Shown here one piece after another: positions 46,354 through 50,878 of a stretch of 64,000 bases of DNA. The position numbers and the translations under genes are program-made. This DNA is from Patescibacteria group bacterium. GTDB lineage: Bacteria; Patescibacteriota; Minisyncoccia; Phycocordibacterales; JACOZG01. The stretch spans positions 3,170 through 67,169 of the forward strand of contig JBBTTC010000001.1 in assembly GCA_038064435.1 (NCBI GenBank), given 5' to 3'. The stretch's first letter is position 1, and every line of letters begins with the position of its first letter. The notes below the pieces were generated by a model, which was not told where the DNA came from, searched no databases, and saw only the letters and a list, made by a program, of their open reading frames with translations.

Positions 46354-47673
46354 ATGTTTAAATCTTTTTTTAGAAAAATAATTTCCACTCTTTTGCGTTG
46401 GGAGGCGCGGCTGGTGCTCATCAAGTATCGACCCAAAATCGTGGCAGTGACGGGCAGTGTGGGTAAGACTACCACTAAGGATGCTGTCTATCATTTGTTG
46501 AACCATTTTTATCCTACAGGCCGGAGTCAAAAAAGTTATAACAGCGATTTGGGTTTGCCGTTGACAATTTTGGGTTGCGACAGCGCCGGCCGGAGGCCGG
46601 CGGGCTGGATCAAGAATTTGCTCGAGGGTTTGGTGTTGGTTTTTTGGCCCAATCATTATCCCAAGTGGTTGGTGTTGGAGGTGGGAGCTGATCGCCCGGG
46701 TGACATAGCTTCGATCATTGCTTGGCTTCGACCGGACATGGCGATATTAACTGCTTTGCCGGAGGTGCCGGCCCACATCGAGTTTTTCGCCACCGCCGAG
46801 GCCGTGGCACGGGAGAAAAGTTTTTTGTTGGCGGCGATAAAGAAAAAAGGAATCGCGATTTTGAATCATGACGATGAGCGTATTGCTGGAGTAAAAAAGT
46901 CATTGGCCAATCATTGGGCCGAACGCCAGATTCGTATTCTAAGTTACGGGTTTGGGGGTGGGGATGTTCGAGCCTCGCACGACCACTTAATTGCTGGCGC
47001 TGATGGGGAGATGTGGCCACGTGGTTTGAGTTTCAAGATCAATTATGGTTCGAATTCCATCCCGCTTTCAATTCCGGCGATTTTAGCGCGTGAGCAAGCC
47101 CAAGCTGTGTTGGCGGCTTTGGCGGTTGGTCAGGCACTGGAATTGTCGTGGCTCAAAATGACGGAGGCAATGACCACTTTTGTACCGCCGCCCGGTCGTT
47201 TACGTTCGCTCCCCGGGATTAAAAATACCTTATTGATTGATGACACTTATAATTCTTCGCCGGCGGCATTGGTAGCGGCGCTGGAGCTGGTCAAAAAAAT
47301 TCCCGTCACCGGTCGGCGTATTGTGGTGCTCGGCGATATGCTGGAACTCGGCACGCAAACCATGGCGGCGCATCGCGCCGCCGGTGTGGCGGCCGCGGCG
47401 GTGGCTGATTTTTTAATTACCGTTGGACCGCGAGCTAAATTTATTGCCGAGGCGGCTGATAAAAAGAGGTTTGGCAAACGCAAAATGAAACATTTTGATG
47501 AGCCGAATGAAGTTGGGCAGTTTTTGCAAAACTTTCTCCAGCCCGGCGACTTGGTTTTGTTTAAAGCCTCGCAGGCCGTGCGTCTCGAGCGCGCCGTACT
47601 GGAGGTTATGGCCGAGCCGGCCCGGCGCGCAGAACTGCTTGTCAGGCAAGACCGCGACTGGTTAAATAGGTAA
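46354..47673 (+). CDS. murF: Mur ligase, most likely UDP-MurNAc-tripeptide--D-Ala-D-Ala ligase MurF
   Basis: IVAVTGSVGKTTTKDAVYHLL (P-loop), Mur ligase middle and C-terminal domains. 439 aa fits MurF better than MurE. Confidence 0.65.
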   Translation: MFKSFFRKIISTLLRWEARLVLIKYRPKIVAVTGSVGKTTTKDAVYHLLNHFYPTGRSQKSYNSDLGLPLTILGCDSAGRRPAGWIKNLLEGLVLVFWPNHYPKWLVLEVGADRPGDIASIIAWLRPDMAILTALPEVPAHIEFFATAEAVAREKSFLLAAIKKKGIAILNHDDERIAGVKKSLANHWAERQIRILSYGFGGGDVRASHDHLIAGADGEMWPRGLSFKINYGSNSIPLSIPAILAREQAQAVLAALAVGQALELSWLKMTEAMTTFVPPPGRLRSLPGIKNTLLIDDTYNSSPAALVAALELVKKIPVTGRRIVVLGDMLELGTQTMAAHRAAGVAAAAVADFLITVGPRAKFIAEAADKKRFGKRKMKHFDEPNEVGQFLQNFLQPGDLVLFKASQAVRLERAVLEVMAEPARRAELLVRQDRDWLNR

Positions 47674-47687
47674 TATCTAACGGTTAG

Positions 47688-47737
47688 TCCCGATTCCGTA
47701 AACGGAATCGCGGATCCACGTCCCGACAAGTCGGGAC
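47688..47737 (+). repeat. Hairpin-pair repeat unit, copy 1 (conserved hairpin cgattccgtAAacggaatcg plus variable hairpin gtcccgacAAgtcgggac), upstream of the GIY-YIG ORF
   Basis: 27-nt tcccgattccgtaaacggaatcgcgga at 47688-47714 recurs at 48020-48046 with 26/27 identity. It is embedded between tRNA-Glu-like fragments tctaacggttag (47676-47687) and gacatcagcccctca (47742-47756). Confidence 0.6.
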
Positions 47738-47764
47738 GGGAGACATCAGCCCCTCATTCATTAG

Positions 47765-48007
47765 ATGTATAGCACGTATATTTTAAAATTAAGTGACAAT
47801 TCTTATTACATTGGTAGTACTGGCAATTTATCTCAACGTATTTTTGCACACGAACAAGCAAAAGTTCGTTCTACCAAAAACAAGTTACCTTGCCAATTAA
47901 TCTATCAAGAAAATCATGGCACCAGAAGTGAAGCTCAAGCCAGAGAATATCAGATCAAAAAATGGAAAAGTCGCGCGGCGATTGAAAGGTTATTGAAAAA
48001 TCAGTAG
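47765..48007 (+). CDS. GIY-YIG nuclease superfamily protein (small YhbQ/UPF0213-type)
   Basis: YILKLSDNSYYIGSTGNLSQRIFAHEQ is the GIY-(10 aa)-YIG motif with conserved R. 80 aa. Confidence 0.75.
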   Translation: MYSTYILKLSDNSYYIGSTGNLSQRIFAHEQAKVRSTKNKLPCQLIYQENHGTRSEAQAREYQIKKWKSRAAIERLLKNQ

Positions 48008-48019
48008 GATAAGTATCGG

Positions 48020-48072
48020 TCCCGATTCCGTTTACGGAATCGCGGACTCGCGATTTTTGCTAGCAAAAATCG
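48020..48072 (+). repeat. Hairpin-pair repeat unit, copy 2 (same conserved hairpin plus different second hairpin cgatttttgcTAgcaaaaatcg), immediately 5' of tRNA-Glu
   Basis: tcccgattccgtttacggaatcgcgga at 48020-48046, then a perfect 10-bp-stem palindrome at 48051-48072. Confidence 0.6.
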
Positions 48073-48075
48073 GAG

Positions 48076-48147
48076 GGCCCTATCGTCTAACGGTTAGGAC
48101 ATCAGCTTCTCAAGCTGGTAATCCGGGTTCGATTCCCGGTGGGGTCA
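48076..48147 (+). tRNA. tRNA-Glu (anticodon CTC), no encoded CCA
   Basis: Manual fold: acceptor ggcccta/tggggtc; U8; D-arm gtct-aacggtta-ggac; anticodon arm tcagc-ttCTCaa-gctgg; T-arm ccggg-ttcgatt-cccgg; discriminator A. Confidence 0.8.
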
Positions 48148-48388
48148 TAAAAACAAGGAACCAGATGCGAAGCATCGGTGACTATGTTTTTATGATCTAA
48201 TCATATCCTTTTCGCGAACTTTTTTCCAGCAAAACTAACTCATCCCGCCACGCCTCGGGAGTACCCTCGGCGTCCGCCCTCCGCCCCAGCGCCAATCCAT
48301 GCTTTTTGTTTGGCGTGGGTTTTTTGATTTCGGAATGGGCGCTGGGGCTTCGGGCGGACCAAATTTAGTTTATCAAAAATTTCGATTA

Positions 48389-48422
48389 CGAAAAAGAAAA
48401 ACCCGCACACAAGGTACGGGTT
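48389..48422 (-). terminator. Rho-independent terminator (minus strand) after the small membrane-protein operon
   Basis: On the minus strand: aacccgtaccttgtgtgcgggtt followed by tttctttttcg. Confidence 0.6.
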
Positions 48423-48462
48423 CCAGATTTTGTTCACCACTTCTGGAAAGTGGACCATCTGG

Positions 48463-48693
48463 TCATTGGTGGAAAAAGACGACTAGGCATGTTACGAAAC
48501 ATAACATCCCTTCCAACATAACTCTTTTTCTACGCAAAACTCGAGGCGTGGAGGAAGAACTCTTGTTCGTGTAATAGTTGGTAATGGTTTCGAGATCCTC
48601 CTTTGCTCCCAACCAAAAATAGGAACCAAAAACTACAACCAAGGCCGAGAGAAACATTCCGACTTTAGTCAAATCAAGCAAATTCGGGTGCAT
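48463..48693 (-). CDS. Small membrane protein (2 TM), hypothetical
   Basis: 76 aa with two hydrophobic helices. Its own terminator lies downstream, and it sits 5 nt after the preceding gene on the same strand. Confidence 0.5.
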   Translation of the reverse strand: MHPNLLDLTKVGMFLSALVVVFGSYFWLGAKEDLETITNYYTNKSSSSTPRVLRRKRVMLEGMLCFVTCLVVFFHQ

Positions 48694-48698
48694 GGCAA

Positions 48699-49205
48699 CT
48701 ATTCCTTTGTTAAAGTGCTTGGTTGATTCTCAACTTCGTTGAGGGCAAAAACCAAACTTTCCTTGGAAATAAACAATTCCTTCTCTTTGTTTGTTTGGTC
48801 GTGGAAGCGATACACACCGTCCACAATTTTTTGGAAGCAAAGATGTTCACCCCCACGCAGATTAACAATGTTGCCCGCCTGCAAACGATTGACTATCTCA
48901 TTTGCTTTTTGTTCCCACGCTCTGTACAGCTGGCCGGGGGTTTGTTCGTCGAGATTTTTCCTTTCGTGTGACAGGGGTGGAAGCGAATGTGTATACATCA
49001 TAACAAATCCTCCCAAAATCACACCAGCAATTCCAGCCCCACCGAACCAACCAACAAGAAAGATCTTGTTGCGTCGGTTCTGTAAACTTTCTTCCTGCAG
49101 ACCGCACAAACCGATCAGGACCATGAAAGAAATACAACAAATCATAATCATCTCTAATTCTCCTCTGGCCAAGCTTGGCCAAAACGGGTTCCATTCTGTT
49201 GTCAA
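48699..49205 (-). CDS. Membrane protein (2 TM plus soluble C-domain), hypothetical
   Basis: Hydrophobic helices MIMICCISFMVLIGLCGL and IFLVGWFGGAGIAGVILGGFVMM. A promoter lies upstream on the minus strand. Confidence 0.5.
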   Translation of the reverse strand: MTTEWNPFWPSLARGELEMIMICCISFMVLIGLCGLQEESLQNRRNKIFLVGWFGGAGIAGVILGGFVMMYTHSLPPLSHERKNLDEQTPGQLYRAWEQKANEIVNRLQAGNIVNLRGGEHLCFQKIVDGVYRFHDQTNKEKELFISKESLVFALNEVENQPSTLTKE

Positions 49206-49252
49206 GGTGGTGAACGCTCACCACGAACAATTTGCAACGATTTACTAATGCT

Positions 49253-49281
49253 AGTTTAGCACATCGCCCTAAACTTGTCAA
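49253..49281 (-). promoter_or_regulatory. Sigma70-like promoter on the minus strand (TTGACA -17- TAAACT) for the membrane-protein operon
   Basis: Minus-strand sequence ttgacaagtttagggcgatgtgctaaact, with an exact 17-nt spacer. Confidence 0.5.
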
Positions 49282-49419
49282 GTGTTTTGGCTATGTCAAA
49301 TAACCATTATTTCAAGGCACATTCTGACCCCTTGACGCCGTTTGAGTATTTGCTATTATGGGAATACAAACGGTTTCGGCCTCATCCGCCTCGGCGGATA
49401 GAAAACGCAAAAGCGGTTA

Positions 49420-49809
49420 TCACTGGCAAAGTTTGATGACCGCTTTTTGTATTTTGGCATAATCCTCGGTTTTCAAAACGGCAAATTTATCGAGCAACCG
49501 CTTGGCATCCACTAATCGTAATTGAGAAATGATAGCCGAGCGTTCCTCGCCATCACTTAAATCTACTGGCACATAGAATTTACCGCCTTTGCGTTTTCTG
49601 GTCAGTGGAATAGACCAAAAAACTTCATTGTTGAACTTTTTGAAAATGATGATCGGACGAGCGAAGTTGTAACCTTTGCCATCTTGCTCAAAACCAACAT
49701 TGTAACCGAGTGAGCACCACCAGACCTCACGCTCGTGGAAAAACACCCGCGCGCCCTCGTTATGTAACTTCTCTTTCTTTTTGTGCCACTTCAAAAAGTC
49801 TTTCTCCAT
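49420..49809 (-). CDS. MazF/PemK-family endoribonuclease toxin-like protein (orphan: no adjacent antitoxin ORF)
   Basis: REVWWCSLGYNVGFEQDGKGYNFARPIIIFKKFNNEVFWSIPLT...SAIISQLRLVDAKRL matches the PemK/MazF pattern (ge.w.v.lgpn.GsEq.G.rPvlvl...fn...f...P.T.......S.vl.dQiR.vdk.RL). Start at ATG 49809 preceded by tattat with no SD, so leaderless-like. The TTG at 49839 was rejected. Confidence 0.65.
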   Translation of the reverse strand: MEKDFLKWHKKKEKLHNEGARVFFHEREVWWCSLGYNVGFEQDGKGYNFARPIIIFKKFNNEVFWSIPLTRKRKGGKFYVPVDLSDGEERSAIISQLRLVDAKRLLDKFAVLKTEDYAKIQKAVIKLCQ

Positions 49810-49897
49810 GATTTGATAATAGCAAAATTTGCTTCTCAATTGAAAAAGTTAGTCGTGTGCAAAATCCGAGCGAATGATATAATTAGTTCAAAATAAC

Positions 49898-50878
49898 TTG
49901 AGGAAAAAAATTCGCGTGGCGGTGGTGTCGGGAGGTAAGTCGGCGGAGCATGAGGTATCACTCCGTTCGGCTAAGAACGTGGCTGCGGCCATGGACAAAA
50001 GTAAGTACGAAGTGGTACCAGTTAAAATTGGTAAGACTGGTCAGTGGCCAATTCGTGGTTCGTGGGAAAAATTTTTTAGCTCAATAGACGTAGTATTCCC
50101 AATTTTGCATGGGCCATTTGGTGAAGACGGTACGGTGCAGGGCTTGCTCAAAATTATTGGCGTGCCGTTTGTTGGCGCTGGCGTGTTGGGCTCAGCCGTG
50201 GGGATGGATAAGGACGTGATGAAGCGACTGTTACGTCAGGCCAGTATTCCGGTCGGTAAATTTATGGTTTTTAAATCTGGTGAGAAAATTAGTTTTGTTC
50301 GGGTAAGACGGGGGTTAGGTTTACCACTTTTTGTTAAACCGGCCAACATGGGTTCGTCGGTGGGGGTGAGTAAGGCGGTTGATGAATTGTCTTTGGCCAA
50401 AGCTATTAAGACCGCATTTAAATTTGACACCAAAATTATTATTGAAGAATTTATTGCCGGTCGAGAATTGGAATGTGCTGTGCTCGGCAATGACGAGCCG
50501 ATAGTTTCGGTGCCTGGCGAAGTTTTGGTCAAAGGTGGCTTTTATTCTTATGAGGCCAAATATAGCAGCGCGAGCGAGGCCGTAACGGAAATTCCAGCTA
50601 AGGTTCCACAAAAAATAGTCAAAGAAATTCAAAAACTAGCCGTAAAAACCTTCACCACCCTGTGTGGCGAGGGTTTGGCGCGGGTGGATTTTTTTCTCAA
50701 GAATGACGGCCGAATTTATGTTAATGAAATAAACACCATGCCCGGGTTTACTAATATCAGCATGTATCCTAAACTATGGGCCGAGAGCGGGATATCGTAC
50801 TCGCACCTAATTGACCGTCTCATCCAACTCGCTCTCGCTCACACCAAAGCCGAGAAAAAATTGAGAATTTCTATATGA
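49898..50878 (+). CDS. ddl: D-alanine--D-alanine ligase (TTG start)
   Basis: RVAVVSGGKSAEHEVSLRSAKNV, ATP-grasp motifs, C-terminal ...INEINTMPGFT. Confidence 0.9.
   Translation: MRKKIRVAVVSGGKSAEHEVSLRSAKNVAAAMDKSKYEVVPVKIGKTGQWPIRGSWEKFFSSIDVVFPILHGPFGEDGTVQGLLKIIGVPFVGAGVLGSAVGMDKDVMKRLLRQASIPVGKFMVFKSGEKISFVRVRRGLGLPLFVKPANMGSSVGVSKAVDELSLAKAIKTAFKFDTKIIIEEFIAGRELECAVLGNDEPIVSVPGEVLVKGGFYSYEAKYSSASEAVTEIPAKVPQKIVKEIQKLAVKTFTTLCGEGLARVDFFLKNDGRIYVNEINTMPGFTNISMYPKLWAESGISYSHLIDRLIQLALAHTKAEKKLRISI

Follow-up and report, generated by a model that had tools for sequence, protein, structure and literature searches.

A double-hairpin element with a small predicted GIY-YIG nuclease gene next to tRNA-Glu in Patescibacteria

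Introduction

Mobile endonuclease ORFs (mORFs) of fungal mitochondria are inserted in essential genes together with a foreign copy of the gene's end, as in Allomyces atp6 and Glomus atp6, atp9, cox2, and nad3 (PMC3630166). The native end is displaced and left as a remnant, and the inserted and native copies are diverged at the DNA level but similar at the protein level, which was read as horizontal transfer. Double-hairpin elements (DHEs) and repetitive hairpin elements of mitochondrial genomes are short units, two adjacent hairpins each, dispersed in intergenic DNA and in structural RNA genes (PMC10085805, PMC2800124). They have no flanking target duplications, are not removed from transcripts, and are conserved across species, with suspected horizontal spread. 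Rickettsia palindromic elements (RPEs) are a palindromic repeat family of 100-150 bp with a single fold-back in a reduced bacterial genome, present both between genes and in-frame inside protein-coding genes (PMC1779305).

SegB of phage T4 is a free-standing GIY-YIG homing endonuclease encoded in the tRNA gene cluster, and this site-specific enzyme drives preferential inheritance of the tRNA gene region (PMC2330249). Homing-endonuclease GIY-YIG proteins belong to the UvrC+ lineage and not to the Slx1 lineage (PMC1564403). Bacterial Slx1-like stand-alone GIY-YIG proteins (UPF0213, COG2827; PDB 1ZG2 and 1YWL) are of about 80-100 aa and of unknown function. They were predicted to be repair enzymes inherited vertically, and one fusion to TrmH hints at tRNA metabolism (PMC1564403). 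REP/RAYT and IS200/IS605 systems seem to combine a single small nuclease gene with hairpin-forming repeats that also exist as many ORF-less copies, the enzyme there probably being an HUH (Y1) transposase acting on ssDNA hairpins with defined cleavage motifs.

Here, a locus of a Patescibacteria group bacterium is described in which an 80-aa GIY-YIG ORF, two copies of a double hairpin (HP), and a fragment of tRNA-Glu lie just upstream of an intact tRNA-Glu gene. The analysed window is a stretch of 64,000 nt of contig JBBTTC010000001.1. Loci fetched for comparison are designated L with a number.

Anatomy of the locus

The features of the locus are listed in Table 1. A sequence-only reading had recognized a 27-nt repeat on both sides of the ORF, each copy followed by a different palindrome, and two segments of tRNA-Glu that are contiguous in the real tRNA. 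All these features were confirmed. The 27-mer, which is hairpin 1 of each HP, occurs exactly twice in the window with up to three mismatches allowed, while no matches are expected from shuffled sequences. However, the palindrome after each 27-mer is the second hairpin of one conserved two-hairpin unit, and the block inserted between the two tRNA pieces is the whole 54-nt unit. The HP is a dyad-symmetric unit of 54-56 nt with the arrangement TCC-CGA[stem-loop]TCG-N-GGA followed by YCC-N-CGA[stem-loop]TCG-GRG. The two 27-mers differ only in the loop (AA vs TT), so their 20-nt cores are exact reverse complements. Both units fold as ssDNA into the same architecture on both strands, 11 bp + 1-nt bulge + 3 bp, then 3 bp + 1-nt bulge + 8-9 bp, with energies of -20.6/-20.6 and -18.4/-18.1 kcal/mol and z about -5.4. 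Strict and looser motif scans revealed no further copy in the window, and a genome-wide REP is therefore rejected for this window. No Rfam family matched the HPs of the window or of nine related loci at permissive E-values.

Table 1. Coordinates of the features of the tRNA-Glu locus in the 64-kb window
Coordinates	Strand	Feature	Supporting data
47676..47687	+	Fossil of tRNA-Glu positions 11-22 (D-arm), tctaacggttag, immediately after the murF stop codon (47671-47673)	12/12 identical to 48086-48097 of the intact tRNA
47688..47741	.	Upstream double hairpin (HP-U), inserted between tRNA positions 22 and 23 of the fossil; hairpin 1 at 47688-47714 (TCC-CGATTCCGT/ACGGAATCG-C-GGA), hairpin 2 at 47715-47741 (TCC-A-CGTCCCGAC/GTCGGGACG-GGA)	Same fold and energy on both strands, z=-5.5; same motif and same 22/23 insertion point in L016, L019, L021, L024, and L023-minus
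47742..47756	+	Fossil of tRNA-Glu positions 23-37 (5' anticodon stem and loop), gacatcagcccctca, followed by 8 nt and the ORF start	13/15 identical to 48098-48112; the two mismatches hit loop positions 32-33, including the normally invariant U33
47765..48007	+	80-aa stand-alone GIY-YIG nuclease gene (predicted), Slx1/UPF0213-like	Pfam PF01541, E=5e-14, 52.7 bits against a cut-off of 22.6
47982..48010	+	Weak sigma-70-like promoter match inside the ORF 3' end, upstream of HP-D and the tRNA (tentative)	TTGAAA-17-TAGGAT, 9 of 12; consensus match only
48020..48075	.	Downstream double hairpin (HP-D), ending at the base before tRNA position 1; hairpin 1 at 48020-48046, hairpin 2 at 48047-48075 (CTC-G-CGATTTTTGC/GCAAAAATCG-GAG)	Same position directly 5' of tRNA-Glu in L006, L009, L013, L018, L026, and L030; absent from the ORF-tRNA junction of L014, L016, L022, and L025, to which the window's spliced flanks align across the junction
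48076..48147	+	Intact tRNA-Glu (anticodon CTC), the functional copy	ARAGORN; Rfam tRNA, 61.4 bits, E=2e-12

The GIY-YIG protein

The sequence-only reading proposed a homing-endonuclease-like cassette as one possibility, but the protein is not a classic homing endonuclease. It represents the catalytic domain only, of the Slx1/UPF0213 type. A profile of 25 homologues hits PDB 1ZG2 (E=4.7e-14) and 1YWL (E=1.4e-10), with no UvrC or I-TevI hit at E of 0.01 or better. Residues Y5, Y15, R25, H29, and E61 are invariant in the 25 homologues, which are 79-90 aa long, and no invariant Asn follows E61, in agreement with the criteria for the Slx1 lineage (PMC1564403). NCBIfam, PHROGs, and PADLOC gave no match.

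The gene is under purifying selection, with dN/dS of about 0.1-0.25 and saturated synonymous sites. The order murF-ORF-tRNA-Glu is conserved in at least four diverged lineages (the window, L006, L013, and L018), and the cassette is fixed in all population contigs of this organism. It is not a recent insertion. The protein is 75-76% identical to that of L006, while MurF is only 49% identical, but because of the saturated dS this high identity reflects constraint and not recent horizontal arrival. Relatives with tRNA-Glu(CTC) near murF but without the ORF or HP exist (L050 and L051), although these are distant, with MurF about 50% identical.

Related loci with the ORF

Thirty-four loci were found by protein similarity alone. 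Of these, 23 have a same-strand tRNA starting within 100 nt after the ORF and six have one within about 130 nt upstream, so that 29-30 of 34 lie near a tRNA. The partner tRNA (Glu-CTC, Glu-TTC, Arg, Ala, Met, and others) changes among close homologues, and in many loci the ORF stop overlaps or abuts the tRNA. Usually, a 5' piece of the same tRNA cut by an HP lies upstream of the ORF. The cut is at position 7/8 (L020, L023), 11/12 (L014, L022, L025, L028, L037), 22/23 (L016, L019, L021, L024), in the D-loop (L032), or at 35/36 (L035). The syntenic relatives L006, L013, and L018 have no tRNA fossil around their upstream HP, and the fossil of the window may come from a later conversion.

The HP is tightly linked to this ORF family. 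TCCCGA, TCGGGA, and GGATCC lie within 130 nt of the ORF in 26, 25, and 17 of 34 loci and are enriched 25-, 17-, and 13-fold, respectively. Nearly every Patescibacteria ORF of this clade has an HP within 140 nt. The gene lies 10-40 nt 3' of the HP or between the arms of hairpin 1 (L027, L031, L034, L035, and L038), while in L011 it is in the tRNA D-loop. Tandem arrays were also seen. Relatives outside Patescibacteria have only a single CCCGA..TCGGG hairpin.

The double hairpin as a dispersed repeat

Most HPs have no ORF, and in that sense the repeat is REP/MITE-like. They lie in intergenic DNA, in tRNA-gene ends, at topA and leuS 5' ends, and in-frame inside coding genes. The 151 non-redundant HPs have a mean length of 64 nt with 25 bp paired (z=-6.8); the closing motifs are conserved and the stems vary freely. 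Only nine HPs are adjacent to a GIY-YIG ORF. Of 126 HPs from metagenomes, 24 lie by an intact tRNA whose end they duplicate, covering at least 11 isoacceptor types. When ARAGORN was run on the HP-deleted flanks of the 126, no tRNA spanned any junction, which shows that the interrupted copies are fragments. Long ORFs read through 16 of 127 HPs, and 15 of those 16 have a length that is a multiple of three; one example is gatB in L058.

HP-filled and HP-empty orthologous sites were identified in L143 vs L154, L138 vs L071, and L116 vs L118 (in both directions). L023 carries an intact tRNA-Glu(TTC) and a paralogue with an HP inserted precisely at 22/23, and removing the HP restores a perfect cloverleaf. 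Insertion in tRNAs is precise, without target-site duplication, and the insertion points share no consensus. Instead, long imperfect direct repeats of gene ends abut the HP and are enriched, with 16.7% vs 3.4% of controls at score 14 or more. The two copies of the gene end differ mostly at synonymous sites, with four synonymous and no non-synonymous differences for topA in L136, five and three for leuS in L172, and three and three for leuS in L115. Both copies therefore evolved as working genes, which implies transfer between lineages, although the fossil in the window is too short to reveal its origin. The same topA site is occupied with the ORF in L038 and without it in L136 and L169.

A palindrome at the DNA level is favoured over a sense-RNA structure. 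G·U pairs number 39 on the sense strand and 56 on the antisense strand, and the folding energies are equal (Wilcoxon p=0.8, n=48). Compensatory changes of TCC/GGA to TGC/GCA occur in five loci. These closing variants do not track protein clades, as protein identities are 0.53 vs 0.52 vs 0.51.

Origin and possible mechanism

The locus is interpreted as one resident copy of a composite selfish element of Patescibacteria, and this seems somewhat more probable than not. The part of the sequence-only reading that proposed a GIY-YIG cassette with a hairpin repeat in or next to tRNA-Glu, with partial duplication of the tRNA, is supported by the recurrence of the same anatomy in dozens of independent genomes. 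In this interpretation, the element entered the 5' half of the tRNA-Glu(CTC) gene at the DNA level together with a replacement 5' part, so an intact tRNA-Glu follows the ORF and the displaced piece survives upstream as a fossil. The ORF is probably co-transcribed with the tRNA. How the element spreads is inferred only; no activity, cleavage site, or movement has been observed. The nuclease could act as a structure-specific enzyme, as Slx1 does (PMC1564403), on the HP extruded as hairpins or a cruciform, or on the HP loop in heteroduplex with an HP-less allele. Recombinational repair of the nick or break would then copy the HP, with or without the ORF, plus the adjacent gene end into the homologous locus in a homing-like biased gene conversion, and ORF-less HPs would be mobilised in trans. 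The 80-aa protein has no DNA-binding domain for sequence-specific homing, only two HPs occur in the 64 kb, and in this lineage the cassette is old and stably kept, which also fits a domesticated gene.

A housekeeping Slx1-like repair or RNA-metabolism enzyme, simply co-transcribed with tRNA-Glu, with the hairpins as processing, termination, or insulation structures and the tRNA fragment as an incidental relic, is an unlikely but possible alternative. It agrees with the conserved synteny, the low dN/dS, the close ORF-tRNA spacing, and the predicted vertical inheritance of Slx1-like proteins. It does not agree with the change of partner tRNA among close homologues, the HPs far from any such gene and inside coding genes, the filled and empty sites, the tandem arrays and interrupted full-length tRNAs, the relatives lacking the gene, or the absence of the sense-strand bias expected of an RNA signal. 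Somewhat more doubtful is that two independent parasites are present, an HP moved by some unseen enzyme and a mini GIY-YIG gene that prefers HPs or tRNA leaders as landing and expression sites or uses the HP as its cleavage target. In favour of this, more than 90% of HPs have no adjacent ORF, the ORF takes different positions relative to the HP, relatives outside Patescibacteria have the single hairpin only, and protein and HP do not co-vary. On the other hand, no other candidate mobilising gene recurs next to HPs in the fetched loci, nearly every Patescibacteria ORF of this clade has an HP nearby, and the shared topA site is as expected of autonomous and deleted forms of one element.

A new kind of bacterial tRNA intron, analogous to archaeal bulge-helix-bulge introns at non-canonical positions and encoding a homing or splicing nuclease, is very unlikely. 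In its favour, the insertion is precise, the full-length interrupted tRNAs of L023, L035, L037, and L011 become cloverleaves callable by ARAGORN once the HP and its cargo are removed, and the HP folds as a separate domain in the L023 precursor. However, an intact copy of the same tRNA is always adjacent, most interrupted copies are short fragments, and the outer tRNAs of L011 and L037 have damaged anticodon stems. The borders lie at the base of fully paired hairpins without bulge-helix-bulge geometry, no Rfam intron matched, there is no sense-strand G·U excess, and in proteins the HP is either translated in-frame or leaves a dead gene fragment. An island of the integrase type is not supported either, as there is no recombinase between the repeats and the duplicated part is the 5' half of the tRNA. 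A serine recombinase downstream of the tRNA in L013 is a separate feature.

Comparison with described systems

In contrast to fungal mORFs, the host is here a bacterial chromosome, the targets are mainly tRNA genes and mostly 5' ends, the nuclease is a Slx1-like domain without a DNA-binding part, and a conserved double hairpin marks the junction and also spreads without the ORF. DHEs have no sequence relation to the HP, are GC-rich and organellar, and have not been linked to a dedicated nuclease gene; in-frame insertion in proteins and gene-end duplication are not their hallmark. RPEs have no associated nuclease gene, no preference for tRNA-gene ends, and no gene-end duplicates. SegB is a phage gene without hairpin repeats and is not linked to a tRNA duplication. 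In place of the HUH transposase of the REP/RAYT and IS200/IS605 systems, the only ORF is GIY-YIG, and the unit is a dyad-symmetric pair of bulged hairpins. For Slx1-like proteins, no link to hairpin repeats, tRNA-gene duplication, or mobility appeared in the searched passages of PMC1564403 or in any other paper found, and no description of the repeat family or of the system was found among open-access papers.

The element would provide a first biological context for stand-alone Slx1-like GIY-YIG proteins, whereas a published phylogenomic analysis placed selfish GIY-YIG enzymes outside this lineage (PMC1564403). It also adds a dispersed repeat family to Patescibacteria, whose tiny genomes are thought to carry few mobile elements, and suggests that essential genes can be partly replaced by foreign ends in bacteria, much as in fungal mitochondria. 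The Slx1-like family is large, with 3,699 clusters at 50% identity matching at E of 1e-10 or better. It is a speculative and rather unlikely possibility that these proteins are engines of a structure-guided gene drive, in which the nuclease does not read a target sequence but recognizes its own double hairpin, extruded from a cruciform or from a heteroduplex with an HP-less allele, nicks there, and forces repair to copy the hairpin, the ORF, and the neighbouring gene end. This would be a new class of bacterial mobile element in need of no transposase, integrase, or sequence-specific homing enzyme, possibly usable as a compact tool, and it would also explain the association of these genes with duplicated tRNAs in the few loci examined outside Patescibacteria.

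The searched phage records contain only relatives of 42% identity or less, and the searched viral contigs contain one HP, next to a GIY-YIG ORF. The element accounts for recurrent annotation artefacts, such as GIY-YIG proteins extended through hairpins or tRNA sequence, pseudo-tRNA fragments, and inserts of 16-30 aa in conserved proteins, and possibly for the assembly breaks seen at the tRNA 3' end.

Structure of the locus

All elements listed in the sequence-only reading are present (see the table). The 27-mer occurs twice in the window and nowhere else, even with 3 mismatches allowed, and none is expected by chance. What that reading described as a hairpin followed by a different palindrome is one unit of two adjacent bulged hairpins. 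Both units fold the same way on either strand with equal energy as single-stranded DNA (z about -5.4), and the two 27-mers differ only by an inverted loop. Loci and genomes used for comparison are designated by L numbers.

Coordinates of the features in the window and in the compared loci
Sequence	Position	Strand	Feature
Window	47676-47687		12-mer equal to tRNA-Glu positions 11-22
Window	47688-47741		Upstream double hairpin, 54 nt
Window	47688-47714		27-mer, upstream copy
Window	47742-47756		15-mer matching tRNA-Glu positions 23-37 at 13 of 15
Window	47765-48007		ORF of 80 aa, Pfam GIY-YIG match (E=5e-14)
Window	48020-48075		Downstream double hairpin, 56 nt
Window	48020-48046		27-mer, downstream copy
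Window	48076-48147		tRNA-Glu(CTC)
Window	48150-49900		Lower-GC stretch between tRNA-Glu and ddl
Window	48272-48359		GC-rich imperfect long hairpin, 88 nt
Window	49420-49839		PemK/MazF-like toxin gene
L023	4066-4204	minus	Complete tRNA-Glu(TTC) gene with ORF-less double hairpin between positions 22 and 23
L031	300-560		Region with long-range complementarity
L031	369-425		ORF-less double hairpin interrupting that region
L058	12493-12558		Double hairpin in-frame in gatB, 22 codons
L143	10646-10693		Double hairpin in-frame in a second conserved gene, 16 codons
L136	3621-3706		Double hairpin at the topA 5' end, without ORF
L169	2154-2228		Double hairpin at the topA 5' end, without ORF

Distribution of the ORF family and its association with tRNA genes

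The protein sequence is found on contigs from Hainich groundwater and related runs, all of which have the same murF, ORF, tRNA-Glu order. The MurF of the window and the close GIY-YIG homologues are labelled in NCBI as Patescibacteria group bacterium. Homologues of 60-76% identity were traced to their contigs; all are followed by a tRNA-Glu(CTC), and all are flanked by the same kind of double hairpin. The consensus is TCC-CGA[stem-loop]TCG-N-GGA, directly followed by (T/C)CC-N-CGA[stem-loop]TCG-GG(A/G). The stems differ completely between genomes but stay paired, and the motif is its own reverse complement at the conserved positions. The unit was designated HP.

A scan of one genome per GTDB species with a profile of the protein gave 34 loci. 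In 23 of them a same-strand tRNA starts within 100 nt after the ORF, and in 6 more a tRNA lies within about 130 nt upstream. The partner is most often Glu-CTC or Glu-TTC, but also Arg-TCT, Arg-GCG, Ala-CGC, Met, and Val in Bacteroidia. Upstream of the ORF there is usually a 5' fragment of that same tRNA, interrupted by an HP at position 7/8, 11/12, 22/23, in the D-loop, or at 35/36. In five loci (L027, L031, L034, L035, and L038) the ORF lies between the two arms of hairpin 1. In L035, the ORF is in hairpin 1 and a complete tRNA-Ala is in hairpin 2, and the whole insert sits inside the anticodon of an outer tRNA-Ala; L037 and L011 are similar nested arrangements. In non-Patescibacteria relatives (L040, L041, and L043-L047; Bacteroidia, and MAGs labelled Gemmatimonadales or uncultured bacterium), a single CCCGA..TCGGG hairpin replaces the anticodon arm of a duplicated tRNA next to the ORF, and L040 and L041 show tandem repeats of ORF plus disrupted tRNA. 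Without any pattern pre-selection, TCCCGA, TCGGGA, and GGATCC are 25-, 17-, and 13-fold enriched, respectively, within 130 nt of the ORF ends.

HP as a dispersed element

HP is mostly found without the ORF, as only 9 HPs lie next to a GIY-YIG ORF. In the viral collection, the single hit is again beside a GIY-YIG ORF. Twenty-four HPs lie by an intact tRNA and are flanked by a partial copy of that tRNA, mostly the 5' part, upstream and on the same strand, and at least eleven isoacceptor types are involved. Others sit at the 5' end of topA, where the same insertion point (after ...SPTK) is occupied in three diverged genomes, in L038 with the GIY-YIG ORF inside hairpin 1 and in L136 and L169 without it; each is followed by about 8-13 nt of old gene and then a complete new topA start. 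Others were located at the 5' end of leuS (L115 and L172), just after stop codons with a diverged copy of the gene's last codons beyond the HP (L058), or inside coding genes. Sixteen of 127 are read through by long ORFs, and 15 of those have a length divisible by three, as in gatB of L058. A double hairpin is also inserted in-frame in the second conserved gene of L143. HPs are nevertheless depleted in coding sequence, with 13% read through against 51% of random windows. Several ORF-less HPs (L081, L089, L097, L111, and L167) are embedded in short tandem repeats of about 7 nt, for example ggaattt, ccagtct, and ctgccta. In L031, an ORF-less HP interrupts a region that resembles a long-hairpin non-coding RNA and has no Rfam match.

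Insertion polymorphism and gene-end duplication

Orthologous stretches with and without a given HP exist in L143 and L154, where the 16-codon insert is absent from the L154 orthologue, in L138 and L071, and reciprocally in L116 and L118. L023 holds two tRNA-Glu(TTC) genes, one intact and the other, nearly identical and about 800 nt away, carrying an ORF-less HP; removing this HP gives a perfect cloverleaf. The interrupted gene lies next to a possible transposase-like ORF. The downstream HP of the window is itself optional in the family, as the spliced ORF-tRNA junction aligns continuously to L014, L025, L022, and L016, which lack it.

Imperfect direct repeats of 17-47 nt abutting the HP are five- to seven-fold more frequent than at control positions. 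Where the host is a protein gene, the old fragment and the working copy differ mainly at synonymous positions, with a total of 12 synonymous against 6 non-synonymous codon differences in topA (L136) and leuS (L172 and L115). Both copies therefore evolved as functional genes, which implies that one came from another lineage. This is the pattern described for mobile endonuclease ORFs of fungal mitochondria, which bring a foreign gene end and displace the native one (PMC3630166).

DNA or RNA nature of HP

For 48 HPs whose sense strand is known, G·U pairs are not more common on the sense strand (39 vs. 56), and folding energies are equal (p=0.8). No Rfam family matches. The precursor of the interrupted L023 tRNA shows the HP as an extra two-hairpin domain without bulge-helix-bulge geometry, and two of four reconstructed outer tRNAs have damaged anticodon stems. 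Compensatory changes in the closing triplet (TCC/GGA to TGC/GCA) occur in five loci, so the bulged hairpins themselves are selected. Together, these results favour a DNA-level palindrome (hairpins in single-stranded DNA or a cruciform) over a spliced RNA.

The GIY-YIG protein

A profile of 25 homologues hits only the two bacterial Slx1-like structures, 1ZG2 and 1YWL. Catalytic Tyr, Tyr, Arg, His, and Glu are invariant, and there is no conserved C-terminal Asn and no extra domain. In the published phylogenomic analysis, this clade was taken to be vertically inherited repair-type enzymes, and selfish GIY-YIG enzymes were placed in the other (UvrC+) lineage; eukaryotic Slx1 is a structure-specific endonuclease (PMC1564403). 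The dN is 0.22-0.53 with saturated dS, giving dN/dS of about 0.1-0.25. The wider family is large, with 3,699 clusters at 50% identity matching at E of 1e-10 or better. There is no match in NCBIfam, PHROGs, or PADLOC. Database proteins of this clade (P0011-P0029 and P0015 in our set, and many hits in the wider family) often carry artefactual extensions. C-termini ending in ...SSNG or ...SSSG are read-through into the tRNA, while N-terminal extensions of 20-50 aa appear to be read-through of the tRNA fragment and hairpin, as inferred for P0015 by back-translation.

History of the copy at murF

The order murF, HP, ORF, HP, tRNA-Glu is shared with the relatives L006, L013, and L018, whose MurF is only about 49% identical, and the cassette is therefore old. 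The nuclease is 75-76% identical between the window and the L006 genome, but because synonymous sites are saturated, this reflects unusually strong constraint on the small protein rather than recent transfer. In these relatives, the upstream HP starts right after the conserved Trp codon at the murF end, and there is no tRNA fossil. In the window, a 26-nt piece that includes tRNA positions 11-22 lies between that codon and the HP, and positions 23-37 follow the HP, which is the layout of the 22/23-type cassettes (L016, L019, L021, and L024). Either the relatives trimmed the fossil, or the upstream end in the window was converted from such a cassette. The near-identity of hairpin 1 in the two HPs of the window, with a flipped loop, also points to local conversion, as does the identity of hairpin 2 in the two HPs of L009. 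More distant relatives (L050 and L051) have tRNA-Glu(CTC) near murF with neither ORF nor HP.

Interpretation

The best-supported reading is a composite selfish element, consisting of a double-hairpin palindrome that spreads mostly without an ORF and a nuclease-bearing form that lodges in the 5' part of tRNA (and some protein) genes while supplying a replacement gene end. The mechanism is only inferred from the anatomy, and could be structure-specific nicking at the extruded hairpins or at a heteroduplex loop, followed by recombinational copying. The lack of any target consensus, the lack of target duplication, the strict two-fold symmetry, the Slx1 kinship, and the co-transfer of flanks are in its favour, whereas the long-term synteny and the purifying selection on this copy speak against a purely selfish view. 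A domesticated tRNA-operon gene, two independent parasites, and an RNA intron are the alternative explanations.

No description of the combination of an Slx1-like mini nuclease, a conserved double hairpin, and tRNA 5' replacement in Patescibacteria was found, although only open-access texts were searched and this is not proof of absence. Each ingredient has a known analogue, namely mitochondrial mobile ORFs with replacement gene ends, mitochondrial double-hairpin elements, Rickettsia palindromic elements, and T4 SegB among tRNA genes.

Region downstream of tRNA-Glu

The lower-GC stretch between tRNA-Glu and ddl holds small minus-strand ORFs and the PemK/MazF-like toxin gene. Relatives carry different cargo at the same tRNA 3' side, such as a serine recombinase in L013, and several Logan contigs end exactly at the tRNA 3' end. 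This looks like a variable island at tRNA-Glu, separate from the GIY-YIG cassette. The long hairpin located there has 25-nt arms with 84% complementarity and AT-richer surroundings; it is single-copy in the window and gives only a spurious microRNA-like Rfam score.
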